The position numbers and the translations under genes were made by a program. The notes beneath the pieces were generated by a model. It searched no databases. It was given only the letters and a program-made list of their open reading frames with translations, and was not told the origin of the DNA. Positions 829 to 64,000 of a stretch of 64,000 nt of DNA are shown one piece after another. The stretch is taken from assembly GCA_963717995.1 (NCBI GenBank), contig CAVQXX010000001.1:14187-78186 (forward strand). Reading direction: 5' to 3'. The DNA comes from an uncultured Bacteroidales bacterium (lineage in GTDB: Bacteria > Bacteroidota > Bacteroidia > Bacteroidales > UBA10428). Positions within the stretch are counted from its first letter, which is position 1. Each line of letters begins with the position of its first letter.

Positions 829-2183
829 AAAACAAGCGAAAAAACGGTTTCCTTACCGGGAGAGGACTTATAACTGATCATTCCCCTGTGCATCCTCATA
901 ATTTGCCGGGAAAGGCTCAATCCGATTCCTGATCCCTTTTCACGGGTGGTAAAAAAGGGAACAAATATCTTATCCCTGATCTCTTCACTGATCCCGCTGC
1001 CATTGTCAGATACCTGGATCAACACCCGGCCGGCATAATCCGTGAAGGATGCCATGATTATCTGTTTGTTTTCCTGATCATCTAGGGCCTGAATGGAATT
1101 CATCACCAGGTTGATGAGTACCTGCTCAATTAACTGTTTGTCAGCAGTTACAGCAAGTGATTCCGGATCAACGCGCACCGAGAGTTTAATGAGGCGTTTA
1201 TTCGTTTCCGCAGCGAAAAGTAGTCTGATCCCCTGGAGGAGATCCATTACCTTTATTTCAACCAGATGTAAAGTGGGCATGATTGTCAGGCTGCGGAATT
1301 TGTCAACGAATTCCATCATACCCTGTGCCCTTTCATCAATAATATCAAGTCCCCGCACTGTATCCGTTATTTTCTCATCTGTCAGCCGGATATACTGATC
1401 ACCCGATTCTGCAGGATTCTCCCGGAAAAAAGACTTGATCGTCCTGATCGAAGAGCTGATGGGACCCACAGAATTCATAATCTCATGCGTTAACGTCCTG
1501 ATCAGCTTCTGCCAAGAAACGAGTTCATTTTCCTCCAGCTCATGCTTGATATTCTGAAAGGTAAGCAGGCGGATTGTTTCTCCCTGTATTATAAATTCAC
1601 CCACCCTCACAGACAACGGAGTTAATTCTTCATTCAGCCTGAATTGAATAAGGTGCTGCCTTCCTGGTAACAATTGTCTCAACTGGCTCATGGTCCCCTG
1701 GTCCAGGTCATCCAGAAGACGGATAATTTTAGAGGTGGGGATGTTCAGGAGAATTCTGGCCGAAGGATTCAAAATATCAATTTCTCCAGTCGATTTAAAA
1801 GACATGATCCCAATTCCGGCGTTTTCAACCAGGTGCTGCAAATAGAAGGATCTCTGCGTATTTTCAATTTTCAGATGCTGTATTTTCTCATTCACCAGGT
1901 CGAACAGGCTGTACAACATTTCGAAGGAACGGCTGGAGGCTGTTTTTTTATAAACAACGGAGGAATCGTCGCTTGAAATGGCACCAAAGAAATTAGTAAG
2001 GTCCCGGTTAATCCGGTTAATGTATCTTAACAGGAGAATAACCTGGATCACAAGCAGCACGATGAAATTCACGGCAACATACCAATCCGCCCTTTTAATC
2101 ACGGCAAAGGCAATAACCAGGCAGGTTAAGGCTATCAGTATAACCCGGAGGACTGTGATGATATAGAAACGGTTGTGAATCAT
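825..2183 (-). CDS. sensor histidine kinase (partner of the adjacent sigma-54 response regulator)
   Basis: 452-aa ORF with two N-terminal TM helices. H-box LTHEIMNSVGPI; ATPase N/G boxes LINLVMNSIQA, SDNGSGI, GSGIGLSLSRQI. Confidence 0.85.
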   Translation of the reverse strand: MIHNRFYIITVLRVILIALTCLVIAFAVIKRADWYVAVNFIVLLVIQVILLLRYINRINRDLTNFFGAISSDDSSVVYKKTASSRSFEMLYSLFDLVNEKIQHLKIENTQRSFYLQHLVENAGIGIMSFKSTGEIDILNPSARILLNIPTSKIIRLLDDLDQGTMSQLRQLLPGRQHLIQFRLNEELTPLSVRVGEFIIQGETIRLLTFQNIKHELEENELVSWQKLIRTLTHEIMNSVGPISSSIRTIKSFFRENPAESGDQYIRLTDEKITDTVRGLDIIDERAQGMMEFVDKFRSLTIMPTLHLVEIKVMDLLQGIRLLFAAETNKRLIKLSVRVDPESLAVTADKQLIEQVLINLVMNSIQALDDQENKQIIMASFTDYAGRVLIQVSDNGSGISEEIRDKIFVPFFTTREKGSGIGLSLSRQIMRMHRGMISYKSSPGKETVFSLVF

Positions 2184-2203
2184 AATGTTTTTAAGTTATG
2201 CGG

Positions 2204-2400
2204 TTCTGCAGTTTTGCAGTTCTGCAGTTTAGGGAATTGTCCTCGGTGTTCAGCGTTGGGTGTTCGATGTTCGGTGTTATTTTGAGTCAAAAAACACTGA
2301 ACAAAGCCTGCCCCGATCCATCGGGGGAACATCGAATATCGAACACCGAAGACGATCCAACCTACAGCCTAATAGCCTACAGCCTGCAGCCTGCAGCCTA
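2204..2400. repeat. nested mirror arrays of degenerate 7-8-mers around a central hairpin
   Basis: TTNTGCAG x3 (2204-2229) and GGTGTTC-like x5 (2244-2278). Hairpin CCCCGAT/ATCGGGG (2311-2326). Complementary GAACAYC-like x4 (2328-2356) and TRCAGCC x5 (2361-2400). Confidence 0.6.
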
Positions 2401-3772
2401 AATCCCGTAACGCTCTATCTTCCGGTACAGCGTTTGCCTTCCGATACCGAGCTCCCTTGCAGCTTCGGCGATGTTCCAGTTGTTGTTTTTGAGCGACAGC
2501 ATGATCATTTTCTGTTCCATTTCCTCAAGCTTCATTTTGGGTATTGCCAGGTCAAAATGAAGATCCTCCTGGCCAAATGCAAAGTCCTCCGGCTGAATAT
2601 TCCCTGAATCGCTCAGGATGACCGACTTTTCAATTGTATGGCGAAGTTCTCTGACATTACCCGGCCATGGATATGACTTGAGTTTTTCCATCGACTCGCC
2701 TGAAAAGCGAATACCCTTCCGGTCATACCGGCTGGAAAATTCTTTCAGGTAATATTCTGCCAGTAAAAGTATATCATTCCCCCTGGTGCGCAGGGGCGGA
2801 ATTTCAATCTGAATTGTATTAATCCTGTAAAACAGGTCTTCACGGAATAATCCCTTTTTTACCTGCGCCTGCCAGATCCTTGTTCGTGGCGCTGATAATT
2901 CGAATGTCCACCGGGATCTTCCGGTTTGATCCCAGGGGTGTTATGCTTCGCTGTTCAATGGCACTCAACAATTTTGACTGAAGGGAAAAGGCCAGGTTGC
3001 TGATCTCGTCCATGAAAAGAGTACCTCCGTTGGCAATCTCAAATCGTCCGATCCTGTCTTCCCGGGCATCTGTGTATGCACCCTTTATATGACCAAACAA
3101 TTCACTTTCAATAAGGGTTTCAGATAAAGCCCCCAGGTCCACGCTGATGAAATCGTGATTGCTTCTTTGTGAGAGCCTGTGAATCTCCCGCGCAACCAAT
3201 TCTTTTCCGGTTCCGTTTTCTCCTGTAAGCAGAACACTCGCAGTTGTCCCGGCCACTTTCTGAATGTTCCTGTGCAATTCAGCCATAACAGGTGAAGTCC
3301 CTATTATTTCCGAAAAGCCCCGGTTTATATCCTCCTTCAGCTGCTTTTCCCTTAGCTGTAAATGCCTGACCTGCTTTTTCGAATTTCTGAGCTTCATGGC
3401 CGATTGCAGGGTGGCAAGCAACTTATTGTTATCCCACGGCTTCACTATAAAATCAACAGCCCCTTCCTTAATTGCCCGGATAGCCAGTTCAATGTCACCA
3501 TAGGCAGTGATAAAAACTACCACCCCGTCGGGGTCTGCTTCCAGGATGGTGTGCAGCCAGAATATTCCTTCATTTCCGGTATTGATGCCGGCAGCAAAAT
3601 TCATATCAAGGACGATCACATCCGGCAGTTCCTTTTGAAGAAAACTGATGATCTGGTTTGGATTTCGAAGTATGCTGATTTTCTCAAACTGGTATTTGAG
3701 AAACAAATCAAGCGAATTCAATACGCTGACATTGTCATCCACGATAAGAATATGCCCGGCGGATTTTGACAT
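2398..3772 (-). pseudogene. sigma-54-dependent Fis-family response regulator (NtrC-like), one frameshift (possibly a sequencing error)
   Basis: ORF 2840..3772 has a receiver domain (IVDDN, DMNF) plus AAA+ motifs GENGTGKE and GAYTDA. In another frame FREDLFYRINTIQIEIPPLR runs on into ORF 2398..2691 (WPGNVREL plus a C-terminal Fis-type HTH). The frame change lies at about 2860-2875. Confidence 0.85.
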
Positions 3773-3832
3773 GAAGGAGTTATTCAGATAATTGCCAATT
3801 CATGATAAAAATACGAAATATGTTCCAGTAAC

Positions 3833-14067: not shown

Positions 14068-14248
14068 GTAGCTCATTGGCTGTTAACAAATAATAATAAA
14101 GCATCTTTTCCCACCATAAAATGACTGCCGGAGGTTGTCAAATAAAAAAAGTTTCTATTTTTGTTTCGCAAACCAAGAAAATCTTCAAATGGACGACGGC
14201 CCTGCGAGTATACTTATTTATTAATCATGATATAGTAAGGTAGCGTGT

Positions 14249-14292
14249 CTGTTGATATGCCATCCTTCCTGTATCAGCAACAGTAAGGAGGT
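14249..14292 (+). promoter_or_regulatory. leader hairpin abutting a strong Shine-Dalgarno (AAGGAGGT)
   Basis: CTGTTGATA (14249-57) pairs imperfectly with TATCAGCAACAG (14272-83). The loop holds the anti-SD-like CCTTCCT. The SD at 14285-92 lies 4-5 nt before the ATG at 14297. Confidence 0.3.
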
Positions 14293-14296
14293 GCAT

Positions 14297-15566
14297 ATGA
14301 CATCTTTTACAACTTTTTATTTAAGCCGCATAATCGGGAGAAAGGTATACAATGCTGAAGGAAAGGTCATTGGCGTTGTAAAAGACCTGCTAATACTTTT
14401 TCACCAGGCAAGCCAGACTTTTGAAAGGCCGGTTGTTACAGGTATCAAAATCAGGATAGGAAAACACTCCCGAGTATATTCCTTTCAATATTTCGACATT
14501 GATAAGATCCATGGCAAGCTCAGGGTGAATTGCAGCCATTTGGTTGAATTGACCGCTGATACCCTGAATGATGGTCTGTTTCTGGCAGAAAGCATCCTCG
14601 ATAAGCAGATTGTGGATTTAAACGGGAGAAAACTGGTGCGGGTAAACGATGTCAGGCTTGTGTCGGTTTCCCGGAGCACACATGCTATTGCGGTTGATAT
14701 TGGCATTGAAGGATTACTGCGCAGGATCGGCATTTCCAAACAGCTTAAATGGATGTTGTCACTTTTCAGGATTACAATGCCTTCCAAGTTCATCTTATGG
14801 GAAGATGTGGAAGCCGTTGATTTTTCTAACCTGAATATTAAGCTGTCGAAAAGTTATTCCAAGCTGCAGACCTTGCATCCCTCCGACCTGGCAGATATCA
14901 TCGAAGAGTTAGGAAAAAAGTCCAGTGCAGATGTGTTCTCGGCACTCGATGAAGAACAGGCTGCCGATGTAATGGAGGAACTTGAAACGGATGCACAGGT
15001 GCATCTTATTGAGTCACTTCCTGTTGAAAAGGTCGCTGATGTACTTGAAAAAATGCCTGCCGATGAGGTGGCAGATATTCTCGATGAGCTGGAGGATGAA
15101 AAAGCAGAACTCCTGTTGAATGAAATGGAATCCGATTCATCCGAAGAGGTAAGGGAATTGCTTGAATATCCGCAAAATACTGTGGGCAGTATTATGTTTA
15201 CCGATGTGTTATCCTTCAAACAGAAATAATACTGTGGAAGAAGTGATCCGTGAACTGAGAAACAGAAAACCGGAAGCATCGGAATTGTACAATCTGTTTG
15301 TTACGGATGAGCATGAGGAACTGATTGCCGCATTCTCCCTTCGCGACCTGGTGGTTGCTGAACCCGGAAGCAGGATTGAACAGATCATGAGTCCCTCGCC
15401 CGTATGTCTGTTTGACGATCAGAAAATAGATGAGGTGGCGGAGGTTATATCAAAATACAGTATGCTGGCTATTCCGGTTGTTGATTTCAACAGTGTGTTG
15501 CAAGGCATGGTGCTGATCGATGATGTGGTGGAAGATTTGATTAATAAACGCAGAACAAACAAATAA
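14297..15566 (+). pseudogene. PRC-barrel / MgtE N-terminal / CBS-pair regulatory protein, one frameshift at an A run
   Basis: ORFs 14252..15229 and 15162..15566. The acidic MgtE_N-like repeats (ADIIEELG, AADVMEELE, VADVLEKMP, VADILDELE) continue into a CBS pair after a frame change at about 15221-15229. Confidence 0.75.
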
Positions 15567-15578
15567 CCCCTGATTATC

Positions 15579-16821
15579 ATGCTCAGGCACAAACATTTCT
15601 TTCGCCGTTTGGGATTGTTTCTGGTCATTCTGGGCCCTGGCATTATCACCGGCAGCGTGGATAACGATGCCGGCGGAATTACCACCTATTCGGTGGCGGG
15701 AGCTATTTATGGGTATAACATGTTATGGACCCTGTTCCCTTCATTTATAGTGCTGATCGTCATTCAGGAAATGAATGCGAGGATGGGAATAGTCACAGGG
15801 AAAGGGTTGGCCGACCTCATCCGAGAGAATGCCGGTGTGAAAATTACTTTCTTTCATTTTCGGCGCACTGTACCTGGCGGATATCGGAAATACTACCACG
15901 GAGTTTGCCGGGATAGCCGGGAGTATGGAAATATTTGGCATATCCAAGTATATTTCAGTTCCCATCATGGGATTCCTGGTGTGGATACTTGTCGTAAAAG
16001 GTACCTATAAATTTGCAGAACGACTGTTTTTGATATTCAGCGTTTCCCTTCTAACGTATGTGGTATCGGCCATTATGGGTCATCCTCATTGGACAGAGAT
16101 CGGACATGCGATCATTCGGCCGGAGTTCCCGCTGAATACGCAAAGCCTGGCCATGATCATCGGAATTGTCGGTACAACCATTGCGCCGTGGATGCTTTTC
16201 TATATGCAATCTTCCGTTATAGAAAAGGGACTAAAGATGAAAAATTACAGGTACACGATCATTGATATTCTGGTAGGTTGCATAGCTACCGTGGTAGTCG
16301 CGTTTTTCATCATTGTGGCCTGTGCTTCCACCTTACACGTGAACGGAATCCATATCAATGAGGCCAAGGATGCGGCGCTGGCGCTGAAACCCATGGCAGG
16401 GGTACTGGCTTCGGAAGTATTTGCTTTCGGACTTTTTGTTGCATCCGTTTTTTCAGCTACAATCCTTCCGCTGGCAACTGCTTTTTATGTATGTGAGGCT
16501 TTTGGATTTGAGGCCGGTATAGATAAGAAATGGGATGAGGCACGCGAATTTTATGTGCTGTATACCTTCATCCTTGCGCTGGCAATGGTCATCATCCTGA
16601 TTCCTAATGCACCTCTGATCTTCATATCCCTGTGGTCACAGGTGATCAATGGATTGATGCTGCCGGTTGTGCTTGTTTGTATGATCCTACTTGTGAACAA
16701 TAAAAAGATCATGGGCAAATATGTGAACAAGCCGGTAAATAATGTGATCGGATGGAGCACGATAATTATTCTCATTGGTCTCTCGTTTACATTGCTGATC
16801 CTTCCCCTTTTCAAAAGATAA
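15579..16821 (+). pseudogene. NRAMP-family divalent metal cation transporter, one frameshift
   Basis: LGPGIITGSVDNDAGGI motif. The frame of ORF 15925..16821 is open back to about 15850 (IIFGALYLADIGNTTTEFAGIAGSMEIFG). The shift lies at about 15838-15850. Confidence 0.85.
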
Positions 16822-46579: not shown

Positions 46580-46906
46580 TCTGAGGGGTGCTGACGGATC
46601 TTATACCGGTGAAAAGATAACCCGATATTTCTCCGCTAATTTTACATCCGCAGATACTATAACATTTACGTTTGCCAACTTAAAATACATATATTCAGGT
46701 TCATATGCTCAGGATTATGGCAAATACCTTTTGTGATGATGAAAAGGCTTAAGCGTACAGCAAAATTTAAGGATTTACTGACTTACAATTGCTTTTCATA
46801 AATATCCGTAGGTTAATGTTCTCAGAATTTCCTAATTTTGTACAGATCATCTCAGACATCCTGTAGCGATTCTTTGAAAAAGCAATTAAAAACTATTTTT
46901 ACGGAT

Positions 46907-49267
46907 ATGAACAAAAACCTGTTTGGCTTATTATTACTGTCCATGACAGTTTCCTTTTCGTGTACCCCGAAAAAAGCGGACCAGCAGGCTTCATCTGCGG
47001 GAGCTGATTTGGACCGTACCTCGTTGCCAATAAAGGAACCCATCCGTCCGGTATATAAAGAGCTTGATGTGCGCAATACCTCAGCGCCGGCCAGGTTCGA
47101 GGTAAAAGCACCCAAGGATGCACCCAATGTTGTGGTTATATTAATTGATGATATGGGTTTTGGCGTTTCCGAAGCTTTTGGAGGCCCCGTTACCACCCCT
47201 ATCATGGATAAACTGGGTGCTAACGGTTTAAGATATAACCGTTTTCATACTACTGCACTTTGCTCTCCCACACGGGTGGCATTGCTCACCGGGTACAACC
47301 ATCACAGCAACAACATGGGCAGTATCGCGGAAGCAGCAACAACCTTGCCCGGAAATACTTCGGTAAGGCCTCAGACCATTAACCCCGATGGCTGAAGTAC
47401 TTCGCCAGAACGGGTATAATACAGCGGCATTCGGAAAATACCATGAAACTCCCCCTGGGAAATTTCAATTGCAGGACCCCAGGATCGCTGGCCAACCCGT
47501 TCGGGATTCGAGAAGTTTTACGGTTTCATCGGGGGTGAAACCAATCAGTGGGCACCGCTTATCTATGATGGAGTTACCCTTGTTGAAACCCCGGAAGATC
47601 CGAACTATCACTTTACCACCGATATGACCAACCAGGCTATTTCGTGGGTTCGCTACCAGAAAGCCCTGGCGCCGGATAAGCCCTTCTTTATTTATTATGC
47701 TCCCGGAGCTACTCACGCGCCGCATCACGTTCCACAGGCATGGATTGATAAATACAAAGGGAAATTTGACGAGGGTTGGGACAAGATGCGTGAACTGACG
47801 TTGGAACGCCAGAAAAAACTGGGCATAGTTCCGGAAAATACAAAACTGGCACCTAAACCGGCTGATATCAAAGACTGGGATAAACTTTCAGCCGACGAAA
47901 AGAAATTGTTTGCCCGCCAGATGGAAGTATATGCGGGATTTGCCGAACAAACGGATTACGAAGCCGGCAGACTCATTTCTACCATTAAAGAATTGGGTGT
48001 TCTGGATAACACCATAATCATATTCATTGCCGGCGATAACGGGGCAAGTGCAGAAGGACAAATGAACGGAATGTTCAGTGAGATGACTTATTTCAGCGGG
48101 GTACCTGAAACCGTTCCCGATATGCTGAAGCATTATGACGAATGGGGCGGCCCCAGCACCTATCCTCACTTCGCTGCCGGATGGGCTGTGGCAATGGATG
48201 CACCTTTTTCGTATACCAAGCAGGTAGCTTCTGATTTCGGAGGCACCCGAAACGGAATGATCATTCAGTGGCCGGCCGGTATTAAAGCCAAAGGAGAAGT
48301 GCGTTCACAGTTCGGCCATGTAATTGATATTGCTCCGACCATTTACGAGGTGACAAAAATACCCGCTCCCACCACGGTCAACGGCATTCAACAGGATCCG
48401 ATCGAGGGCACCAGCCTTGCCTATACATTCAATGATGCCGGGGCTGCCGGGAAACACAAGGTACAATACTTTGAGATGTTTGGTAACCGGGGAGTTTACC
48501 AGGATGGCTGGTTTGCACGTACAATCCACAGACCGGCATGGAGACAAAAACCCCTCAATACACTCCAGGAAGACAAGTGGGAGTTATACAATACGAATGA
48601 AGATTTTAGCCTGGCAAATGATTTGTCGGCAATGAATCCGGATAAACTGAAAGAAATGCAGGGATTATTTATGGAAGAAGCCGAAAAATACCATGTCCTG
48701 CCTCTTGATGACCGGCTGCTGGAAAGAACCAATGCTGAAATGATGGGCAGGCCGACTGTTATGGGGGCCAGAAACACGGTAACATACGGTGAAGGCATGA
48801 AAGGAATGGGGGTTGATGTCTTTATTGACCTCAGAAACACAGCTTATACCATTACCTCTGAAGTGGCAGTGAATGCGAATGGAAACGGTGTAATTGTATG
48901 CCAGGGTGGTCGTTTTGGGGGACTGTCTTTCTATCTGAAAAATGGAAAACCGGCATTCAGTTACAATTACCTGGGAATGGAATCCACACAGATCATAGCC
49001 GCTGAGGCGCTGAAACCGGGAAACTACATACTGGTTTACGACTTTGCCTATGATGGCGGTGGATTGGGCAAAGGAGGCGTGGGTACGATTTCAGTCAACG
49101 GGAAAAAAGTGGCTGAAAAGAGGATTGAAAAGACACAACCGGGTATTTTCTCAGTGGATGACCTGGCTGATGTAGGCATCGACGATGGAACCCATGTTGC
49201 AGATTATGGGTCTTCTTCAAAATTCAGCGGGAAGATCAATTATGTGACCATCGAAAGAAGAAAATAA
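46907..49267 (+). pseudogene. arylsulfatase (formylglycine type, lipoprotein signal), two frameshifts at C runs
   Basis: MNKNLFGLLLLSMTVSFSC lipobox, DDMGFG, and CSPTRVALLTG. Three ORFs (46838..47395, 47388..47627, 47624..49267) join if the indels at 47383-86 (C4) and 47451-55 (C5) are corrected (HETPPWEISIAGPQDRWPT...). Confidence 0.85.
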
Positions 49268-50319: not shown

Positions 50320-51534
50320 TCACTTGCCCCGCAGACTACCGCCCTTCTGACGAGGAGGAAATTCGGCCAAAGTTCTCATGTGGGCCGCAATCGCATCCTG
50401 CACCTGTCCGCCCCACGCCACTCCGAGTTTCATGGCAACTTCGCGCGATTTCCACTGATCATGAATTTCAAATGGATCCTGTCTCAGGTTGAACAACAAG
50501 GCGCTCGGCCTATTGTAATCAAAGAATCCCTCACGTATCATAAAGTGCGATTTCCAGTTTCCAATCCTTAATGCGGTCAGTTCGCTCTCATTATAGTAAT
50601 ATTCGATGGTGCGGTTTGAAGGAGAATCACCGGTCCAATGGTTCAGGTTGTTCACGCCGTCAATGTACACATGACTGGACTCACGAAGTTTTTCCTGTAT
50701 ATTGTCGATTCCACACGCAGCTGCCAGGGTGGCAAAGATATCCGTATGATCCTGGATTCCGTTGGAAACCTTACCTGCAGGTATTCTGGCCGGCCATCGT
50801 ATCAGCATGGGTACCCGCACTCCGCCTTCCCAGGTAGTCGCTTTTTCTCCACGGAAAGGAGTTGTACCGCCATCCGGGAACCAGTCTGCCATAGCTCCGT
50901 TATCGCTGGTAAATAAAATGATTGTGTTTTCCGCAATTCCCAGTTCATCCAGTTTCTTTAGCAATTCAGCAACCATGGCATCCAATTCCATCATTCCGCT
51001 TCCGTAAATATCAAATTCAGAGGAATAGGGAGTTGCCAGGTTCTTGTTTTCCGGTCGCAAATGGGTGTATATGTGCATCCGGGTTGGGTTAAACCACACG
51101 AAAAACGGGTCGCCCCCGCTAACGGACCGCTGCATAAAATCGGTGGTGCGTGCCAAAAACTCATCATCGATGGTTTCCATCCTTTTGGGATCGAGAGGGC
51201 CTGTATCCTTGATGGTTTGTTTGCCCACCTTGCCAAAACGTCCATCCACTGTCGGATCATCGGTATTGCTGGCCTTGCAATCCAGCACTCCGCGGGGCTT
51301 ATACCTGCCGTCAAATCCTGCATCTTTCGGCCAGCTTTGGAGAAAAGGTTCTTCCTCTGTATTCAGATGATACAGGTTTCCATAGAACTCATCAAATCCA
51401 TGTACCGTGGGAAGATGCTCATTCCGGTCGCCCAGGTGGTTTTTACCGAATTGTGCGGTACGATACCCGAGTGTTTTGAGCACTTCTGCAAGGGTTGGAT
51501 CCTTTTCGCTTAAACCGATCGGAGAACCGGCCAT
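50320..51534 (-). pseudogene. sulfatase lacking its N-terminal ~80-100 aa (signal peptide, metal-binding Asp pair, CxPxR)
   Basis: The ORF begins at ...MAGSPIGLSEKDPTLAEVLKTLGYRTAQFGKNHLG, a mid-sulfatase region. The in-frame upstream codon is a stop. Only ~170 bp remain before the divergent gene at 51707. Confidence 0.7.
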
Positions 51535-53319: not shown

Positions 53320-54664
53320 ATGAAAAATATTGACCCTGTAAGCCTGCTTAAGGTGTTTAATAATAATGGGTACTCATATATTTACGTTTATTATAAGATA
53401 GAGGGCCAGGCTATTAGAATTAATACCAAATGCCGATGGATTAAGAAACAAAATGACAAGGGAGAACCTGTATAACTCACGAATGGAAAATGGAGATACC
53501 CTAAATCGGCAAATTGAAATCTTAAAAAGAAAAGTAGATTCATATATATTGGATGAACTTGTTAGCGGTGCATCGAATATAAATCAGAAGGGTTGCCAGA
53601 AATACATTAAGAATTATGAAAAGATGTTAAGTCTGAAGATGTTTCCTGATAAAATCCGAAAGGATGAAACATTTTTGGTTGATTATTATAAGAGGTTCTT
53701 CGAGTCAAAAAAGCATCGTCCCTTTATTAAGCCTATCTCGTTGAAAGAATTATGTGTCTCTCAGAATTTTCTTAAGGATTTTGAATTAAACACCAGTAAG
53801 AAATATTTATTGGATGATATAAATGAGTCATTTATAAACCGAATGATAACCTTTTCGCAAACAGAATTAAAAAAAGACCAGGGATATATAACAAAAGGCA
53901 AACTCCAACAAAATACACTTAAGAAGAGACTGGATGTGTTTAAGGAATTTCTTATCTGGCTTGCCGATAAGGATATTAAGAGTTATAATATCCACAAACT
54001 GTTCCCGAAGATAGAGAAAACGAGCAAAGATGTTGTTTATGTGACAACTGATGAAATTAAACAATTAATCGCAACAAGACCCAAAATAGAAGGTGACTAT
54101 AATCAAATGGCATTTGATTCTTTCATTTTTAACTGTGAAACTGGATTACGGTATCAGGATTTAAGCAATTTAACAAAAAACGATTTTAATAAAATCCCTG
54201 AAGGTTATATCTTAACCAAGGAATTGAACAAGCACAGCGTTAAATTTTCGAGTGTAAGTCAGATACCAATTATTGACCCTTTGCTAATAGAAATCATTGA
54301 AAAATATGAATTCCACTTTGGTTTGAAAAGTAATCAAGAATATAATCGAACGCTTCATAAAATATTTAAAAAACATGAATTATTCAAAGACCCAGTTACA
54401 GTTAAACGCAAATACATAAATGGGAAAGTAATAGGCGAAGACATGTTTAAGTATGATGTGATTACCTGTCATAGTTGCAGAAGGTCTATGATAACAAATG
54501 CTTTAATGAACGATTATAATGCTGCCCAAGTTATGCAAATGAGTGGTCATAAAAATCTCAAGATTTTGCAGAAGTACTCGAATTTTGCAAATAATGAATT
54601 GTTGCAGAAAAATCTTGAGCAGAAACTGAATGAATTAAAGAAAGCAAGTGCCCCTAAAACCTGA
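53320..54664 (+). pseudogene. Bacteroidetes-type tyrosine integrase, one frameshift near an A-rich run
   Basis: Catalytic region in ORF 53453..54664 (GLRYQDLSNL; HSCRRSMITNAL; MSGHKNLKILQKYSNF = R, HxxR, Y). An arm-binding-like N-terminus (MKNIDPVSLLKVFNNNGYSYIYVYYKIEGQAIRINTK) lies in another frame from 53320. The shift is at about 53443-53455. Confidence 0.8.
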
Positions 54665-55885: not shown

Positions 55886-56137
55886 TCACCAGGTAATTCC
55901 TTTGAAAAAATCTTCAGGGGTGCAACCAATTGCTTTTAGTACTTCCAAGAATGAACTCATTTTATAATCCTCTCCTTTCTGCATCCGCCAAAGCGTCATA
56001 TTATTAATTTCATGACTTTTTGAAAACGATTTATAATTAGAATCCACTTCCTGTCGTAATATTGTTATTCGTTCTCCGATTTGTTTCATGGTTTCACCAA
56101 TTTCAGAAGGAAGTTCTGGGATGGTTCTTTTAGTCAT
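55886..56137 (-). CDS. XRE-family HTH transcriptional regulator
   Basis: 83 aa. IGERITILRQE...SFSKSHEINNMTLWRMQKGE...SFLEVLKAIGCTPEDFF is a typical Cro/C1-type HTH. Confidence 0.65.
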   Translation of the reverse strand: MTKRTIPELPSEIGETMKQIGERITILRQEVDSNYKSFSKSHEINNMTLWRMQKGEDYKMSSFLEVLKAIGCTPEDFFKGITW

Positions 56138-56178
56138 GAGATTATTTTTAAAAGTATTTTTTCAAAATTATAAAAAAA

Positions 56179-56221
56179 GCATAACATTTTATGCATGCAT
56201 AACGTATTATGCATATATTTG
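56179..56221. promoter_or_regulatory. tandem palindromic operators (GCATAA-N4-TTATGC x2) overlapping a TAnnTTTG -7 box
   Basis: GCATAAcattTTATGC (56179-94), GCATAAcgtaTTATGC (56197-212) and TATATTTG (56214-21). They lie between the divergent XRE gene and the small ORF. Confidence 0.4.
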
Positions 56222-56225
56222 TATC

Positions 56226-56411
56226 ATGAAAAAGAAATTTAGAATAATACAACAGACAATAAACCTCAGCATTGATTGCGATAACTCGCACAATTACTTG
56301 TTGTTAATGGAAACATTGGATTATGTACCGCAACGAATTTACCTGGTGGAAATGAAGAATTTTTTATTCTATGATTCGGAAATGAGGCATTATGTCATTA
56401 ACTCAAACTGA
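56226..56411 (+). CDS. hypothetical 61-aa protein
   Basis: ATG immediately after the -7 box (near-leaderless). No motif recognised. Confidence 0.3.
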   Translation: MKKKFRIIQQTINLSIDCDNSHNYLLLMETLDYVPQRIYLVEMKNFLFYDSEMRHYVINSN

Positions 56412-56579: not shown

Positions 56580-57166
56580 ATGAGCAAAAAACTATCCATA
56601 ACCACTTCGGATTATCTTACTTGGGAGCAAAACATTAATCTGATACGAAAACTGAGTGACGATAAAGAATTTAAATTATCGCTATTAATTTCGTTTGGCT
56701 CATTTTGGGGGTTAGGATTGGGGATATTTTACGGTTACGTTGGATTGACATATTAAATAAAGAGGAGTTTACATTGACCGAAGGAAAAACTAAGAAATTA
56801 CGTGAAATAAAGATAAATGCACAACTAAGAAAGCACATTAACTATTGCTGTGAATCTATTTCACCAATATCGTTTGAAGAACCAATTTTTTTAAGCCAGA
56901 AGAAAACGGTTTATAGCGTCCAGAGAGTAAATGTTATCTTAAAGGAGATAAAAGTTCGTTACAACCTGAAAATAAAGAACTTTTCAAGCCACAGTTTTCG
57001 CAAAACATTTGGGAGACAGATATTTGAGGTAAGTGGTACTAATGCTGAGTTAAGTTTGGTCAAGTTGAGCCAGTTGTTTAATCATTCAAATCCTTCAATC
57101 ACAAGAAGGTACTTAGGAATTTCACAGCAGGAATTGTTAGACACGTATGATGTTTTGAGTTTCTAA
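56580..57166 (+). pseudogene. short (~195 aa) tyrosine recombinase, catalytic domain only, one frameshift at a T4/G5 run
   Basis: GVRIGDILRLRWIDI (R), HSFRKTFG (HxxR), SNPSITRRYLGI (Y). The N-terminal 42 codons from the ATG at 56580 are in another frame. The shift is at 56703-56711. Confidence 0.7.
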
Positions 57167-57532: not shown

Positions 57533-58193
57533 ATGGCGAATGTTTTGAGATATGTAAGCAATTCAAAAAAGGGACTGGCAAGGGAGCAGAACCAAGACAG
57601 AGTTTTTATATTTGAAAACAGTAACGTTTTATTTATTTATACTGTTTGATGGGGTTAGTTCACTCCCGTTTAGTTTTTTATTTGCTGAAAATTTTAAAAG
57701 AAGAATCAGTGCGAAAATTCACCTGATTGATAATCAAGGAAACAATTTGGACAAATTGTTTTACGATGTTAATAGTGAAATGATAGGTTTGAGGATTTCT
57801 GGTAAGAGTACAATTTCCGCATTGTTCTTCAGCAAAATCAATGAAACAGCAAAGTATATTAATATTGGGGATACAAGAATATATGTTTTCACGAATCAGT
57901 TTCTTGAGCAGATTACAATTGATGATTCTCTTATTGGACTGGAAAATATAATTACGAAATGTCTCGGCAATGATTTAGCCATTGAAGATTTTCAACCAAA
58001 GAATATTGAAAAGCATTATAACTATCTTTTGTGTACGGATGGGTTTTACAAGATAATGGAAGAAGAATTAAAGGACTATTTTAATACTCTAAATTTTAAA
58101 AATCTCACAAACATTAAGAAGAAGATTACCTATCTTCAAAGACGGAAAAATCGGGATGATTCTTCATATATTTTAATTAAAAATGAAATTTAA
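57533..58193 (+). pseudogene. PP2C-family Ser/Thr phosphatase (~220 aa), one frameshift in a T-rich run
   Basis: PPM motifs in order: GLAREQNQD, ILFDGVSS, IGDTRIYVF, LLCTDGFY, RDDSSYILI. The first 38 codons (from the ATG at 57533) are offset by one base. The shift is at about 57625-57648. Confidence 0.65.
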
Positions 58194-58815
58194 AGCAGAG
58201 TCTGAACTTGTTCAAGTCCTCAAACAGAGGTTAAGTAATATCTCGAGTAGGAGTAATATAGGAATTTTTGAGGAAGTTTCACTGGGTTACGGTATTGCTG
58301 ATTTAGTTGTATGTGATTTTGCAATGCCAATGAGCAAAGTACAATCCTTCGAAATTCCACTAAACCATTCAGATGCCAATATTTATAACATTATTCAATT
58401 AAAAAGAATTGTTTCTTTTATTGAACTTATCGAAACAACACGATGTTCGAAAAAAGCGGTATCAGATTCTCTGAAGAAATTAATCAATTACAAATACATA
58501 AAACAAATTGATAATTCTTACGCTGTTAAAAGGAAGTATGAATTGCCATTTAGAAATAATTTTGCAATCGAGACAAAACTAAAGGATTGGAAGAGAGCAT
58601 TATATCAGGCATATAGGTACAAGTGGTTTGCGGAATTTGCATATGTAGTAATGGATGAACATTATGCAGAACCAGCAATTCAAAATCTTGACTTATTTAT
58701 CAGATATAATGTTGGCTTTGCAACTATCTCAACAAATGGTAATTTAATTCGATACTTTAATCCAAAGCGAAACAAACCTCATGACCCAATAATGCAAATC
58801 TTTTTGCAGAAATGA
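58183..58815 (+). CDS. PD-(D/E)xK nuclease-like protein with an internal winged-helix-like insert
   Basis: EEVSLGYGIADLVV ... AIETKLKDWK fits E/D...ExK spacing. Residues ~65-115 (IYNIIQLKRIVSFIELIETTRCSKKAVSDSLKKLINYKYI) look like a wHTH. The start overlaps the PP2C stop by 11 nt. Confidence 0.4.
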   Translation: MKFKAESELVQVLKQRLSNISSRSNIGIFEEVSLGYGIADLVVCDFAMPMSKVQSFEIPLNHSDANIYNIIQLKRIVSFIELIETTRCSKKAVSDSLKKLINYKYIKQIDNSYAVKRKYELPFRNNFAIETKLKDWKRALYQAYRYKWFAEFAYVVMDEHYAEPAIQNLDLFIRYNVGFATISTNGNLIRYFNPKRNKPHDPIMQIFLQK

Positions 58816-58937
58816 TTAAAAAAACTATGAGTTAGTAAGAAAGGTTTTCCAAGTGTTTAAATGATAGTTTCCACTCTCGTTATCTAAAAAAACCCCTTTG
58901 CTTTCAAGAGTATTGTAATTTTTATTTGCAAAATCAA

Positions 58938-59976
58938 TCAATTCGAGAACATATTCTTTTCTTTTCTTTTATCATTAATTATTGAAATAGTATTCAGAAG
59001 CCTCGAAATTGCAAGTAAATAATTCTTATTTACATCTGGTTTATGAATATTCCAGGGATAACCGTTTTTAAGAATGATATCAGAAAAAATGTTTTTTTCA
59101 TTTTTAATAATATTTAGGTTATCGGTATCACGAATTAAGGTGACGGAATCTGCTTTAACCATGTTTAATAATTTCTCGGAGAAATAGTAACCTTTTGAAC
59201 CGCCACCAGATTCATCTTCTGTAAAACGCTTAATGTCGAAATTTCTTAGATTTTCATATGTACCAATTGTTACATAATCAATATCAGTCAGTGCAAGCAT
59301 AATTATTGCATCCCAATTAGCATACGCATAAATTGTTTCAAAATCCTGCTGCTTTAATGTTTTTAGAACTTTTGATAGATTTCTAAGTACTTTAATATCA
59401 GTGGTTAATTTTTTTCTAAATTCAGGTTTATTCTCACAGACAATGAAGTAGCCATCGAATGAAACAATTCCTATCTGTACTTTCAAAAAGTATTTCTTCA
59501 ACTTTATCTTTATCAATAATTATGTGATTGGCAAAGGGTAAGGTCATGAAATACTTTTCTTCATCACTTTTTTTATACTTGATACATATCGATTGAAATT
59601 TTTTAATAGTATCGATAATATCATTAACTTCCTCATTTTCATAGAAATGCGGAATAATAATATTTTTGAATCCTCTTTCCTTTTGGAATTGGATAGATTG
59701 CTTTACACAACTTTCAAAATATACATTAGTAACTGATTTTTCATCGCAATTGGCAGTGTGAAATGGAAACTCATCAAGTTTGCCTTTTTTATTTTTTTTT
59801 CCATAAAATTGTAAATCAATCATTGAAATATCATGGACTTTTTGGAAATCCTTTCTTAAACCAAAGTCTATCCCATGACTAAAGGCTGTTATTAAAAAAT
59901 ACTCTCCGATTTGCTGTTCAAAATATGCTTCAGTATTCCAATTCGAATTATGTCCTAAAACGTGTGTAACTTTCAT
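58938..59976 (-). pseudogene. unassigned ~346-aa alpha/beta protein, one frameshift; translationally coupled to the kinase
   Basis: ORFs 59434..59976 and 58938..59516 join at about 59478-59490 (...VEEILFES/VQIGIVSFDGYFIV...). Alternating beta-alpha pattern; no family recognised. The ATG overlaps the kinase TGA (ATGA). Confidence 0.55.
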
Positions 59977-60758
59977 GATTCTAAGAGTTTTAAAAAATTT
60001 TCAATTTTTCTTGGTCGCTCAGATGGATTTTTTTTAAAAACAGAATTGCAAAAAAGTGTTAATACCTTACTGGAAAAGAAACTGAAAAATCGCTTTTTTG
60101 AAATGTTGTATATATATCACCTCTATCACTTCCAAAAGGCAAATTGTTATTATACAAATAGAATGCTATTATTCCAAGGCAAAAAAGTCTGTTCTATAGG
60201 AAATAAGTTTTTTTTGACCAGCATATTGTTCTGGACTTGCAAAAAGCCATGATAAAGGTTGTCCTCCTCCTGTTGCGGTTAAACTCTCTTCATCTAATGC
60301 CCTGCAATACCAAAATCAAGGACTACTGGGTTTCCATTTTTACGAATTCGAATATTTTGCGGTTTTAAGTCTCTATGGACATAGTTATCTTCCCAAATTG
60401 GTTTGAGAATATTCCCAACATTCAATATCAGGTTACAAATTTTAACTTCATCATCTTTATAAGACCTATTGATGTCGCACAAATCTTCACCATCAATGTA
60501 CTCTTCAAGGATAATGGTTTCTTTGTCAAATTTCTCTATTCTTTCAATATTTGGGATTCCAAGATTCATAGAATACTTTTGGCATATTCTTACCTCTCTC
60601 TCAAATCTTTCATCAACTGAATTTATTATTTTCAAAGCATATTTAACTCCTCCTATTGTCACTATAAATACGGTCTTCTGCCCACCCTGTTTGGGTTGGG
60701 AATAATCAGTGATATTAAAATGACTTATCAATTCTTGAGTCAATGTTATTGATGCCAT
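59973..60758 (-). pseudogene. minimal Hanks-type Ser/Thr protein kinase (~260 aa), about three frameshifts
   Basis: GGQKTVF, YALKII, EREV, HRDLKPQNI and LDFGIA in ORF 60294..60758. The rest is in shifted frames: LDEESLTATGGGQPLSWLFASPEQ, DFFALGIIAFYLYNNNLPFG, FKKNPSERPRKIENFLKLLES. Confidence 0.8.
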
Positions 60759-61100: not shown

Positions 61101-62186
61101 TTAATCCTCTATCTTATTTACCAACGGGTCATAATAATCAATCTTCTCTCTCGCCCAAATAAGCCAATTTTTCAAGTCCTCTGTGAGTTCACCCTTCTGA
61201 ATTGCTCTGACTTCAACTTCAGTTATATAAGCCCGAAGAATCTCTGATTTATGCCATTTCTTTGATTTTTTTAGAACTTTTTTGAAGTTCGCAATATCTT
61301 GCTCTTCGTTCATTTTTATTTCGTCCAGAATTCGTTGTTCTTCTCTTTCAATTGCCCACTGTTTTTCCCGTTCAATTCTCTGTTCCCTTTCCGTTAATGC
61401 CATCATTTCAAGACCAGCAAGAATTTTTGGCAATTGATTTTCGATGGTTATTTTTCCGTCTGACCAGGTTTTCTGGTGAAAAATGAAGTGTTTCCAAATC
61501 CTAAAGGTTAAGATGCCAGTAGGAAAATATTCTCGACTCTTCCAGCCATAATTATTATCCTTTTCCTCAAATCGCAGTTTCTCCTGGAGACGAATTACAA
61601 TTTTTTCTCCGAAAATCACAGCATATGTTTTATCAGAATTGACGATAACTTCATGACCTCTGGCTCTGAGTAGTTTTATCAGTGTATCCATGAACCGCAA
61701 TGCTCTTGAAAAATTCCTTGGTGTAACTTTCATATCAATAAAACCTGATTTTGTTTGAATCAAGCCATTTCGACTCCAATAATTGTGATTATCACCTTTA
61801 AGGTCATCTTGAGCCTGAACAATTAATGAATCTGGATTTTTCAGTTTGGTTGGTACTCTCATAGGCAATTCTTTGTTTGATTCAATTTCTTTGATTAAAC
61901 TGGTTTTGATTGAAACTTCTCGTTTTTTCACCTCATCCTTCTCATCAATCGCATTTAAGGTTACCTCATCCCTCCCTGAGTAATTTGTAGGCAAATCGAT
62001 TTTTAAGACAGGTTTTAGATATTGAAGTTTTTGCCAATGACCCAAATTTGGCAATGGGATATTCATTTTCTTGCAAATTTTTCGAAGTCCATAGTCTGAT
62101 ATGTGATATTGTTTCGCAAGTTTTGATAATGGTGTTGTCCAGACTAATTCATAAAGTTGTTGACGGTTAAGCGTTATTTGTTCCAT
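61101..62186 (-). CDS. hypothetical 361-aa protein (conserved N-terminal module, coiled-coil C-terminal half)
   Basis: N-terminus LYELVWTTPLSKLAKQYHISDYGLRKICKKMNIPLPNLGHWQK resembles a module I recall in uncharacterised proteins. EREKQWAIEREEQRILDEIK coiled coil. Confidence 0.55.
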   Translation of the reverse strand: MEQITLNRQQLYELVWTTPLSKLAKQYHISDYGLRKICKKMNIPLPNLGHWQKLQYLKPVLKIDLPTNYSGRDEVTLNAIDEKDEVKKREVSIKTSLIKEIESNKELPMRVPTKLKNPDSLIVQAQDDLKGDNHNYWSRNGLIQTKSGFIDMKVTPRNFSRALRFMDTLIKLLRARGHEVIVNSDKTYAVIFGEKIVIRLQEKLRFEEKDNNYGWKSREYFPTGILTFRIWKHFIFHQKTWSDGKITIENQLPKILAGLEMMALTEREQRIEREKQWAIEREEQRILDEIKMNEEQDIANFKKVLKKSKKWHKSEILRAYITEVEVRAIQKGELTEDLKNWLIWAREKIDYYDPLVNKIED

Positions 62187-62402: not shown

Positions 62403-64000
62403 ATGCTACTCGACAACAAAACCCAAACCGAAGACAGTTCATATTATAAAGTATTTGACTTTATTAAAAATTATACCGAACAGGGGAAATTTGACCTTGT
62501 TTCTGGGTTTTTCTCCGTAAATGCTTTGGCATTAATGCATGATGAGGTAAATCAGGTAGAAAAATTCAGGATGATTCTGGGTAACCTCATGCAGGATGAT
62601 TCGCAGTTGAATAAAATCATTGACCTGTTAAACGGGGACGCTGGTATTAACAATACTCTCAGTTTAAATGTTTCAGCACAAAAAGCAGTTGCATTCCTGG
62701 AACAGGATAAGGTTGCAGTTAAGAATATTCAGCGCAATTTCTGTCATGCAAAAACTTATATATACAGCGACAAAGACACACGGAAAAGTTTTCAAATCAT
62801 CGGTAGTTCAAACCTTACTGATGCAGGTCTGGGACTCAAAGACAGCAGTAATATTGAATTAAATACTGCCAGTCATAGTGAAGACAATGATTTTAAAGAG
62901 TTGAGGAAGTGGTTTAATAACCAGTGGGATAAAGTGGCTGCCGATAAAATTGAACTCCCCGACAAAAGCAAAACTAAGGTTGATGTAAAAGAACACATTA
63001 TCGAATTAATTAAAAATCTGTTCAAAGAGTACACTCCCTATCAACTTTACTATAAGGTTCTATACGAGTTGTTTAAAGAAGATTTGTTAACTCTTTCAAG
63101 TGATGCGGAATTTAAGAAGAGAATAGAGCACCTGGAGAGTAACTGAAATTTACCGAACTCTTTTCCCATACCAACAAAAAGGTTCTCTTAGTTTGATTAA
63201 AATGCTTCAGAAATACAACGGTGCAATATTAGCCGATGCTGTTGGTCTTGGAAAAACCTGGACTGCATTAGCCGTCATGAAGTATTTTGAGAATAAGGGT
63301 TATACAGTATTCCTTTTCTGTCCGAAAGAAATTACGAAACAATTGGGAGCAGTATCAAAGTGGCAAAGGCTCAAGATTTGAAAAAGATGAGATTGAATAT
63401 TTTGTAAGAAATCATACCGACCTTCAAAATGAACGCCTAAATTCTATCTATCCTGACTTTCCACTTACAAAGTTGCAGCGAAAACAGAAAGTTCTAATTG
63501 TGATTGATGAAAGTCATCATTTGCGCAATGACAAGTCTGCCAGATACAAGTATTTGGTAGATAATGTGTTATTACCCGAAAAGAAACACCGTGAAGTAAA
63601 AGTTCTTCATCTTTCGGCAACCCCTATCAACAACAAGTTGGTTGATATTAGGAATCAGTTTAAACTAATGACTAAGGGAGAAGATAACGGTTTTGAAAAG
63701 ACTGAACTGGAAGTTAGGTAGCCTTGAAAGTATTTTCAGAACAGCACAAAAAGATTTTAACGATTGGAGCGACCTTGAATCCAAGAAAATTTCAGACTTT
63801 ATTTCCAAACTTCCTCAAAAATTCTTTGACCTTACTGATGCTCTTATTGTTGCTAGAACACGTAAGTTGATTGAAGGAGAGTTTGGGGCAATGAATTTCC
63901 CAAAGAAGGCGGTCCGATAAATGATTACATAACACCTGAAAATCTTGGTGACCTGAAATCTTTTGATGATATATTGAAAGCTTTACGGGTCAACCTGACA
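62403..64000 (+). pseudogene. PLD (HKD) nuclease - SNF2 helicase fusion, at least 4 frameshifts, 3' end beyond window
   Basis: HKD motif CHAKTYIY...IIGSSNLTDAGL. Then, in shifting frames: YRTLFPYQQKG, LADAVGLGKTWTA (motif I), VIDESHHLRN (DExH) and LSATPINN. Frame changes at about 63124-46, 63325-27, 63712-20 and 63905-18. Confidence 0.8.

Follow-up and report, generated by a model that had tools for sequence, protein, structure and literature searches.

Is the convergent four-gene cassette that lies towards the end of a 64,000-nucleotide stretch of DNA from an uncultured Bacteroidales bacterium (GenBank assembly GCA_963717995.1, contig CAVQXX010000001.1; the whole stretch is referred to here as the window) a chance gathering of genes, a copy of a system that already has a name or a conserved module in its own right, and what might such a module do? 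The cassette comprises, on the minus strand, genes for a Hanks-type Ser/Thr protein kinase and a TIM-barrel protein and, facing them on the plus strand, genes for a PP2C-family Ser/Thr phosphatase and a nuclease-like protein (Table 1). A preliminary description of the locus, made from its letters alone, regarded it as a candidate defence-type system. The cassette is real, conserved and apparently unnamed, and new within the known theme of conflict systems controlled by a kinase and a phosphatase. Judged from its sequence, it may be a horizontally mobile, phospho-regulated defence or conflict module, directed against phages or plasmids, with a nuclease as its effector, a proposal to which we give an even chance.

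Related loci were collected from the genomic contexts of five homologues and by a pattern scan with the alignment of the TIM-barrel family, using one genome per GTDB species. The search patterns were matched in 35 of ∼185,000 GTDB species genomes, in addition to several metagenome contigs, while a genome scan with the 210-amino-acid nuclease-like protein alone found no loci. In every locus with a long enough contig the kinase gene is followed by the TIM-barrel gene, and this pair converges on the nuclease-like gene and, behind it, the PP2C gene; the apparent absences of genes in related loci all fall at contig ends. As this order is kept throughout, the association of the four genes is not due to chance, and the view that they form a genuine co-inherited module, fixed in order and orientation, is upheld. 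The genes of each pair are also tightly joined. At the kinase/TIM junction the start and stop codons overlap as ATGA in 17 of 30 loci, and lie within 11 bp of each other in the rest, while the PP2C and nuclease-like genes overlap or are within 8 bp. In 33/33 related loci the convergent TIM-barrel and nuclease-like genes run into each other at their 3′ ends, with an overlap of 4–40 bp (mode 19).

The TIM-barrel protein belongs to a wider superfamily of 405 clusters at 50% identity, retrieved by an exhaustive search with a hidden Markov model (HMM), and some of its members reside in loci of different composition (Table 1), in which the nuclease-like genes were confirmed by local HMMs. The kinase, the TIM-barrel protein and the nuclease-like protein occur together in every variant locus inspected, with or without the PP2C or the winged-helix insert of the nuclease-like protein. 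Because the distant variants keep these three proteins, the three form the conserved core of the system, and the PP2C and the insert have been added in particular clades. The TIM-barrel protein is the obligate partner of the kinase, being translationally coupled to it and, in one instance, fused to it.

The structure of the window copy was derived by six-frame translation and tblastn searches with intact homologues, and its indels were located by aligning the DNA with that of an intact relative (locus L007), to which it is 77% identical. Approximately eight indels of 1–2 bp, mostly at A/T runs, interrupt the frames; three are in the kinase gene, two in the TIM-barrel gene, one in the PP2C gene and two in the tail of the nuclease-like gene. 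The last two, at ∼58814 and ∼58824, remove ∼16 C-terminal residues of the nuclease-like protein. After repair the TIM-barrel gene runs to 58825 and the nuclease-like gene to ∼58864. The 122-bp gap that had been described between the two gene pairs is thus an artefact of the frameshift near 58969, and the 3′ ends overlap as they do in the related loci. Similarly, the fourth protein, put at ∼346 residues, is really ∼385 residues long, the second frameshift in its gene having hidden the last 47. By contrast, the 11-nt overlap of the PP2C stop codon with the next start, and the ATGA in which the kinase TGA overlaps the start of the following gene, are as first reported. Thus, of the initial picture of two coupled pairs facing each other, the coupling stands and the separating gap does not.

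The kinase matches the Pfam Pkinase domain with E=1e-22 (81.3 bits against a cut-off of 31.7) and is a Hanks-type Ser/Thr protein kinase. In an alignment of 21 family members, which included the repaired window copy (whose numbering is used), the catalytic residues Lys43, Glu55, His128-Arg-Asp130, Lys132, Asn135, Asp148-Phe-Gly150, Pro176-Glu177, Asp191 and Arg249 are all invariant, so that the enzyme is, by its residues, predicted to be catalytically intact. Thr161 of the activation loop, within the motif ITATG, is near-invariant among the same sequences. The protein is a bare domain of ∼262 residues without a sensor domain, consistent with its initial portrayal as a sensor-less minimal Hanks kinase.

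The phosphatase is assigned to the PP2C/PPM family from its sequence profile, which matched a range of solved PP2Cs in the PDB, including tPphA (2j82, E=5.5e-14), Stp1, PppA, PstP and MspP, the other entries matched being 5f1m, 6jkv, 1txo and 2jfr. The motifs RxxNQD, DGVSS, GDSR, DD, TDG and DDS are invariant, as are the metal-binding positions Asp22, Asp39-Gly40, Asp113, Asp130-Asp131, Asp170-Gly171 and Asp209-Asp210 (L007 numbering), and the ordered PPM motifs noted at the outset were therefore read correctly. In the homologues of the window clade, matches to the Pfam family PP2C_2 are weak or faint, while the PP2C of variant locus L128 matches PF00481 with E≤1e-5. Judged by these residues, the phosphatase, like the kinase, is predicted to be catalytically intact.

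The TIM-barrel protein could not be placed in any family when the locus was described, beyond having an α/β character. In respect of family this remains the case. There are 295 homologues (382–407 residues, 55–83% identical to the window copy), and the best 120 of these are all annotated as ‘hypothetical' or unnamed and lack a Pfam domain. A sequence-profile search of the PDB found no relative, NCBIfam contained no match, the only match in PHROGs was at chance level over 43 residues, and Pfam and PADLOC returned nothing except sub-threshold, chance-level Pfam matches to the window copy (DUF1959 and FAM180). The fold, however, can now be placed. The AlphaFold model of one homologue (P0004), which has a predicted local distance difference test score (pLDDT) of 88 and a predicted template-modelling (TM) score of 0.89, displays a (β/α)8 barrel followed by a C-terminal helical bundle. 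When this model was compared with the PDB using Foldseek, only generic TIM barrels were retrieved, at TM-scores of ≤0.54 (triose-phosphate isomerase, aldolases, PcrB and glycosidases), and in BFVD the matches were unnamed phage proteins and weak tRNA-guanine transglycosylase (TGT)-like proteins. The model thus identifies the fourth protein as a TIM barrel with no assignment to any known family of that fold.

Invariant polar residues, comprising His9, Asp54/Gln56, Tyr112, Glu180/Lys182, Lys188, Asn219/Asp221 and Glu240/Asn241/Arg243 (P0004 numbering), are located at the C-terminal ends of the strands of the modelled barrel; Pro109 is also invariant, alongside Tyr112, and a Gly-rich loop (SGGGSKG) follows strand 8. 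Conserved residues placed in this way at the mouth of the barrel would suit an enzyme or a pocket for a ligand, perhaps with affinity for phosphate. A relationship with TGT or DpdA, suggested by the length of the protein, a ‘D-x-Q-F-Y' motif and the weak BFVD matches, was considered and rejected. The TGT-like and DpdA-like matches ranked 6 and 21 with TM-scores of 0.39–0.45, hhalign gave a probability of 0.7% against Escherichia coli Tgt, and the family has no invariant cysteines, no Zn ligands and no TGT motifs.

In an alignment of 36 homologues of the nuclease-like protein Glu6, Glu31, Asp40, Glu130-x-Lys132, Gln142 and Arg145-Tyr146 (window numbering) are invariant. The AlphaFold2 model (pLDDT 90) has the topology α-β-β-[winged helix-turn-helix (wHTH), residues 50–115]-β-α-β, in which Asp40 is at the start of strand 2 and the ExK motif in strand 3, an arrangement that corresponds to the core of restriction endonucleases. 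The winged helix is of the TrmB/MarR type and is inserted between Asp40 and Glu130. Relatives that lack the insert read ‘…GIPD-x25-ELK…Q', and IPD-x25-ELK is the textbook spacing of the PD-ExK motif. The Glu, Asp, ExK and Gln residues are kept even in these insert-less relatives, which have no DNA-binding domain whatever. These features fit the PD-(D/E)xK-like signature, split by a wHTH-like insert, that was proposed for this protein, although a match to a named nuclease family was not obtained; as the core matches no known nuclease profile or structure, we infer a nuclease from motif and topology. Only the close family was present among the top 120 homologues found, and some sources annotate the protein as a ‘predicted transcriptional regulator'.

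Mrr-type and other wHTH plus PD-(D/E)xK restriction enzymes provide a close parallel to this architecture, as they combine a winged helix with a catalytic core that carries the E…D…ExK…Q residues and has the restriction-endonuclease fold predicted for the nuclease-like protein. In contrast to the Mrr type, however, the winged helix is inserted between strands β2 and β3 rather than appended, and the core displays no profile-level similarity to Mrr_cat or to any nuclease in Pfam or the PDB.

Comparison of the cassette with Pfam, NCBIfam (June 2026), PADLOC v2, PHROGs and the PDB shows that these libraries recognize only the generic kinase domain, the PP2C and the winged helix. Nothing in PADLOC v2, NCBIfam or Pfam places the cassette in TerY-P, BREX type 2 or any other named system, in accord with the novelty first claimed for it, and no description of it was found in the full-text literature, although absence from literature and libraries is not proof. 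The initial remark that vWA, PglZ and PglX are missing also stands, as none was detected among the genes of the module, the 25 commonest flanking families or the open reading frames (ORFs) of the island that were scanned. The TerY-P triad, which Gao et al. are said to have reported in 2020, reportedly consists of vWA/TerY, PP2C and a Ser/Thr kinase, and resembles the cassette in co-encoding a kinase and a PP2C in a conflict-type setting; the lack of a vWA gene, over the scope just given, excludes it. The linkage of vWA, PP2C and kinase genes has been described (PMC7159879).

The defence system BREX type 2/Pgl, in which PglW is a kinase, PglX a methyltransferase and PglZ a phosphatase, likewise combines a Ser/Thr kinase with a phosphatase. 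It differs in that PglW is ∼1,400 residues long and the Pgl phosphatase is alkaline-phosphatase-like, whereas that of the cassette is a PP2C. The match of the kinase to the NCBIfam PglW model (1,391 positions) is weak and confined to the domain (E=2.3e-8, 32 bits against a cut-off of 990), and PglX, PglY and PglZ are absent, and the cassette is thus not a Pgl locus. Two kinases are reported to act as single-gene defences, PD-T4-6 (reportedly by Vassallo et al. in 2022) and Stk2 (reportedly by Depardieu et al. in 2016), and both are stand-alone proteins with extensions of their own. The best PADLOC matches of the cassette kinase are to PD-T4-6 models, down to E=7.6e-27, over only positions 20–215 of 327, and for this reason an automated annotator might label the kinase alone as PD-T4-6-like. 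Unlike these proteins, the cassette kinase is a bare domain of 262 residues and is invariably accompanied by the TIM-barrel and nuclease-like proteins. The PP2Cs also show weak similarity to PADLOC model PDC-M21C (E=1.7e-7 to 2.8e-12, N-terminal half of the model only), and the nuclease-like protein has weak winged-helix matches (CARF3 and WH_III-A) and none to PDC-M21. The cassette is not PDC-M21, because only the C model was matched, weakly and over half its length, and the TIM barrel has no PADLOC match at all.

By analogy, the best precedent for a kinase/PP2C pair that would sense infection is KKP, encoded by Pseudomonas Pf prophages, in which a PP2C-type phosphatase, PfpC, restrains the toxic kinases PfkA and PfkB (PMC11341870). 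The phosphatase is the node that is inhibited by a phage protein, which unleashes the kinases, and the system both defends the host and regulates Pf lysogeny in the manner of a toxin-antitoxin-like switch (PMC11341870). In both KKP and the cassette, a Hanks-type Ser/Thr kinase is encoded on a mobile element together with a phosphatase that opposes it or, in the cassette, would oppose it. They are nevertheless distinct, as KKP is prophage-borne, uses two kinases and lacks any counterpart of the TIM-barrel and nuclease-like proteins, whereas the cassette has one kinase and both additional genes, and no relatives in the IMG/VR viral contigs.

The hosts of the cassette are mainly Bacteroidota (Bacteroidales, Flavobacteriia, Sphingobacteriia, Cytophagia and Chitinophagia), with others in Balneolaceae, Ignavibacteria, Turneriella and Herbinix, a distribution that is patchy and crosses phyla. 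Intact copies are present, for example, in Mucilaginibacter oryzae DSM 19975 (QGHA01000012.1, within 66,792–83,952), Sphingobacterium puteale M05W1-28 and Larkinella humicola MA1. No relative was found among the IMG/VR viral contigs, and a phage origin was therefore rejected. In 39 non-redundant loci, 137 ORFs that lie no further than ∼3 kb from the module were scanned, and the Pfam families that recur most often in them are phage integrase (6), together with the SAM-like and arm-binding domains that belong to it, and resolvase and transposase (2 each). PADLOC matches in the same set include type I and type IIG restriction-modification, GajA of Gabija, HerA, SIR2, SoFic, HNH and candidate systems, and further neighbours include Mrr, a ParE toxin-antitoxin pair and AbiC. 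Such surroundings would be expected of a small cassette that moves horizontally and frequently settles in defence islands.

How might the components act together? A more far-reaching form of the proposal of a conflict module, which we hold a little more tentatively, is that the cassette represents an unnamed family of prokaryotic immune systems, in which a bare Hanks kinase always comes with an orphan TIM-barrel enzyme, by coupling or sometimes by fusion, and with a restriction-fold effector, a PP2C brake being present in some clades; the TIM barrel would provide a new infection sensor or enzymatic activity, and phosphorylation would license the cleavage of DNA. The coupling of the kinase and TIM-barrel genes, and their fusion in one instance, imply that the two proteins would act as a complex, the barrel serving in sensing or in catalysis alongside the kinase. 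No other product of the cassette is a candidate for the sensor that the bare kinase seems to lack, although the barrel may instead be a co-effector. The conserved threonine of the activation loop suggests that the kinase would autophosphorylate at this position, and it may then phosphorylate a target, which could be the nuclease-like protein, the barrel or proteins of the host or phage. A co-encoded PP2C is the classic antagonist of a kinase, and in the cassette it would continuously reverse the phosphorylation and hold the system off. Infection would tip the balance, for example by inhibition of the phosphatase as in KKP, and the DNA-binding nuclease would be released to cut the DNA of the invader or, in abortive infection, that of the host itself. 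The likeliest effector would be the DNA-binding restriction-fold protein, as it is ever-present, and the two convergent operons, overlapping as they do, may each hamper transcription of the other as well. The gating of a nuclease by reversible phosphorylation, the mechanism first envisaged for the locus, may reasonably be inferred.

Several observations weigh against this interpretation. The absence of the PP2C from some variants indicates that it is not essential to the core mechanism. For the putative effector, Foldseek matched only the wHTH insert and no nuclease, a profile of the core alone found no nuclease in the PDB or Pfam, and hhalign returned a probability of 0.2% against the Mrr catalytic domain. 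The TIM-barrel family contains no metal-ligand cluster of the type typical of TIM-barrel nucleases or amidohydrolases. Finally, many neighbours of the module are ordinary housekeeping genes, the neighbour counts being raw numbers, and no mobile or defence gene is evident around the Mucilaginibacter locus.

The frameshifts raise a separate issue, which concerns the window copy rather than the family. They probably reflect errors of assembly or sequencing, such as would occur in poorly polished AT-rich sequence, as housekeeping genes in the core of the window are split as well. In these genes, which encode an NtrC-type sigma-54 activator, an MgtE_N+CBS protein, an Nramp protein and a sulfatase, adjacent pieces match consecutive parts of one Pfam family (Table 1), which indicates either that frameshifts affect the assembly as a whole or that pseudogenes are numerous; the comparison rests on this Pfam evidence, local synteny with related genomes being almost nil. 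The alternative, that the indels are real and the window copy is a decayed pseudogene remnant, whatever the family does, is unlikely but deserves serious consideration. The ∼8 frame-breaking indels fall within 3.3 kb, compared with roughly one per 10 kb in the core, not all of them are in long homopolymers, and the neighbouring short recombinase and PLD-SNF2 helicase genes of the island are also split. Homopolymers of ≥6 nt are only ∼3.4 times denser in the module, and the indel rate per long homopolymer is ∼8-fold higher there than in the core, a point that tells against error. Decay is countered by the density of long homopolymers, 3–4 times greater in the island, and by the state of the repaired genes. 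Their frames contain no nonsense codon, the TIM-barrel protein retains 66/67 invariant and 70/70 near-invariant residues, which is no worse than intact members in a leave-one-out comparison, and the catalytic residues of the kinase and PP2C are all in place. Codon changes in the window lineage number 63 nonsynonymous to 117 synonymous, and in intact relatives 72:127 and 30:93; the similarity of these ratios provides no sign of relaxed selection.

With respect to function, it is possible, if unlikely, that integrative elements use the cassette for addiction, in the manner of a toxin-antitoxin pair, or to control their life cycle. The kinase (with the TIM barrel) or the nuclease would then be the toxin and the PP2C an enzymatic antitoxin, and the module would mainly stabilize or regulate a mobile element rather than defend against phages. 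Integrases, resolvases and transposases are frequently adjacent to the module, a short recombinase gene lies directly upstream of the PP2C gene in the window and in three metagenome islands (L003–L005), KKP fulfils both roles, and convergent overlapping operons would suit a bistable switch. Several loci, however, have no nearby recombinase, the short recombinase gene does not accompany the module in general, and some variants lack the protein that would be the antitoxin. Repeats that would mark an invertible promoter were not found on either side of the module; phase variation was considered and dismissed, since the only inverted repeats around it are those expected by chance in AT-rich DNA. 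Addiction and defence are not mutually exclusive roles, and are hard to separate.

It is decidedly unlikely that the genes constitute an ordinary signalling or metabolic operon, in which the kinase and phosphatase regulate a metabolic TIM-barrel enzyme, the winged-helix protein is a transcription factor and the nuclease-like fold serves as a ligand-binding or dimerization scaffold. TIM barrels are typical of metabolic enzymes, and the Foldseek matches were to aldolases, isomerases and glycosidases; housekeeping neighbours are common, no nuclease family was matched, and the annotation as a transcriptional regulator in some sources points the same way. An operon of this kind is difficult to reconcile with the very sparse and patchy distribution among the species genomes searched, with a variable genomic location, which in the window is an AT-rich island insertion, or with neighbours that include restriction-modification, Gabija, SIR2-HerA, toxin-antitoxin and Abi genes. 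Furthermore, no conserved metabolic partner genes were seen, and the nuclease-type residues are invariant even in insert-less relatives. A modification-linked restriction system, in which the TIM barrel would modify or recognize DNA or nucleotides (for example as a transglycosylase- or glycosidase-like protein), the wHTH-nuclease would cut wrongly modified DNA and the kinase and PP2C would only tune the process, is very improbable, since the resemblance of the barrel to glycoside hydrolase-clan barrels and phage TGT/DpdA-like proteins, and the restriction-modification genes that adjoin variants, are outweighed by TM-scores at the generic TIM-barrel level, the negligible hhalign probability against Tgt, the lack of Zn-binding cysteines and TGT motifs, and the absence of a methyltransferase or other modification gene conserved with the module.

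The setting of the cassette in the window agrees with the AT-rich, integrase-bearing island first described. The G+C content falls from ∼45% in the core to ∼30% at ∼52.4–53 kb and stays low to the end of the window, and the low-G+C stretch contains, in addition to the cassette, a tyrosine integrase, two small ORFs and a second, short recombinase (Table 1). The product of the short recombinase gene is 61% identical to that of a gene in the same position in the metagenome islands L003 (10561–11148), L004 (9576–10163) and L005 (9011–9598), with no homologue in any other related locus. The PLD-SNF2 helicase reported nearby is present, albeit in four or more pieces as a result of at least three frameshifts, and is likely a separate defence gene. 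For the 361-residue ORF directly upstream of the kinase gene, neither Pfam nor PHROGs gave a match, and none of the 40-odd related loci contains a homologue of it; as with the helix-turn-helix genes and integrases, it is not kept with the module in related loci, which contain no fifth conserved gene. An imperfect palindrome of 47 nt (70% complementary) is located within 56151–56240, in the AT-rich intergenic region between a small ORF (55886–56137) and the short recombinase gene, and may be an operator or a terminator, or a product of chance in AT-rich DNA. In the core of the window, the closest relatives of the gene at 50320–51534 on the minus strand are from Cyclobacteriaceae (Shivajiella, Algoriphagus and metagenome-assembled genomes), at 74–81% amino-acid identity. 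Identities of this order would probably place the host in the Cytophagales, as a member that has yet to be sampled.

Table 1. Positions of the cassette genes and other features in the window, and composition of variant loci. Positions in variant loci are those of the respective contig; arrowheads give the arrangement of the genes.
Feature	Locus	Position	Strand	Details
Hanks-type Ser/Thr kinase	Window	59973–60758	−	∼262 residues repaired; three −1 deletions, near 60302, 60180 and 60076
TIM-barrel protein	Window	58825–59976	−	∼385 residues repaired; frameshifts near 59465 (+1) and 58969 (−1); three frames by tblastn
3′-end overlap of convergent TIM-barrel and nuclease-like genes	Window	58825–58864		∼40 bp after repair
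Nuclease-like protein	Window	58183–58864 repaired; 58183–58815 as assembled	+	210 residues as assembled
PP2C-family Ser/Thr phosphatase	Window	57533–58193	+	∼220 residues repaired; one +1 insertion near 57626; two frames
Tyrosine integrase	Window	53453–54664		403 residues; low-G+C island
Short, catalytic-domain-only tyrosine recombinase	Window	56580–57166	+	∼195 residues; frameshift-split; immediately upstream of PP2C
Intact ORF	Window	61101–62186	−	361 residues; directly upstream of kinase, same strand
PLD-like nuclease domain (PLDc_2/NgoFVII-type), then SNF2/ResIII helicase motifs	Window	62403–64000	+	Cut by window end
Split core housekeeping genes	Window	2401–3799; 14231–15563; 15579–16821; 46838–49267	−; +; +; +	Adjacent pieces match consecutive parts of one Pfam family
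Kinase-TIM fusion (P0376) facing nuclease-like homologue	L044	6001–8049		682 residues; Eco57I-type and BsuBI/PstI-type restriction genes
kinase> TIM> insert-less nuclease-like	L045			ParE toxin-antitoxin pair adjoining
FRG> kinase> TIM> nuclease-like, <PP2C	L128	1230–2231 (FRG-domain gene)		FRG-domain gene upstream of kinase
nuclease-like> kinase> TIM> HNH	L130	6374–7099 (HNH_5 nuclease); 1–3172 (type I HsdR and Mrr-type enzyme)		
nuclease-like> kinase> TIM	L131			

To our knowledge, few kinase-based immune systems are known in bacteria and fewer are understood, those we are aware of being Stk2, PD-T4-6, KKP, TerY-P and Pgl, and the defence repertoire of the Bacteroidota is, as far as we know, poorly explored. 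If one of the rival readings holds, the interest of the cassette would be lower, and the co-inheritance of its genes would still need explaining. The parts of the putative phospho-switch are separate small proteins with recognizable active sites, and the system should therefore lend itself unusually well to genetic and biochemical work. Two of its four families, the 385-residue TIM barrel with its many clusters and the restriction-fold protein split by a winged helix, have no annotation, and a function established for them would give an annotation to hundreds of ‘hypothetical proteins', mostly from Bacteroidota.

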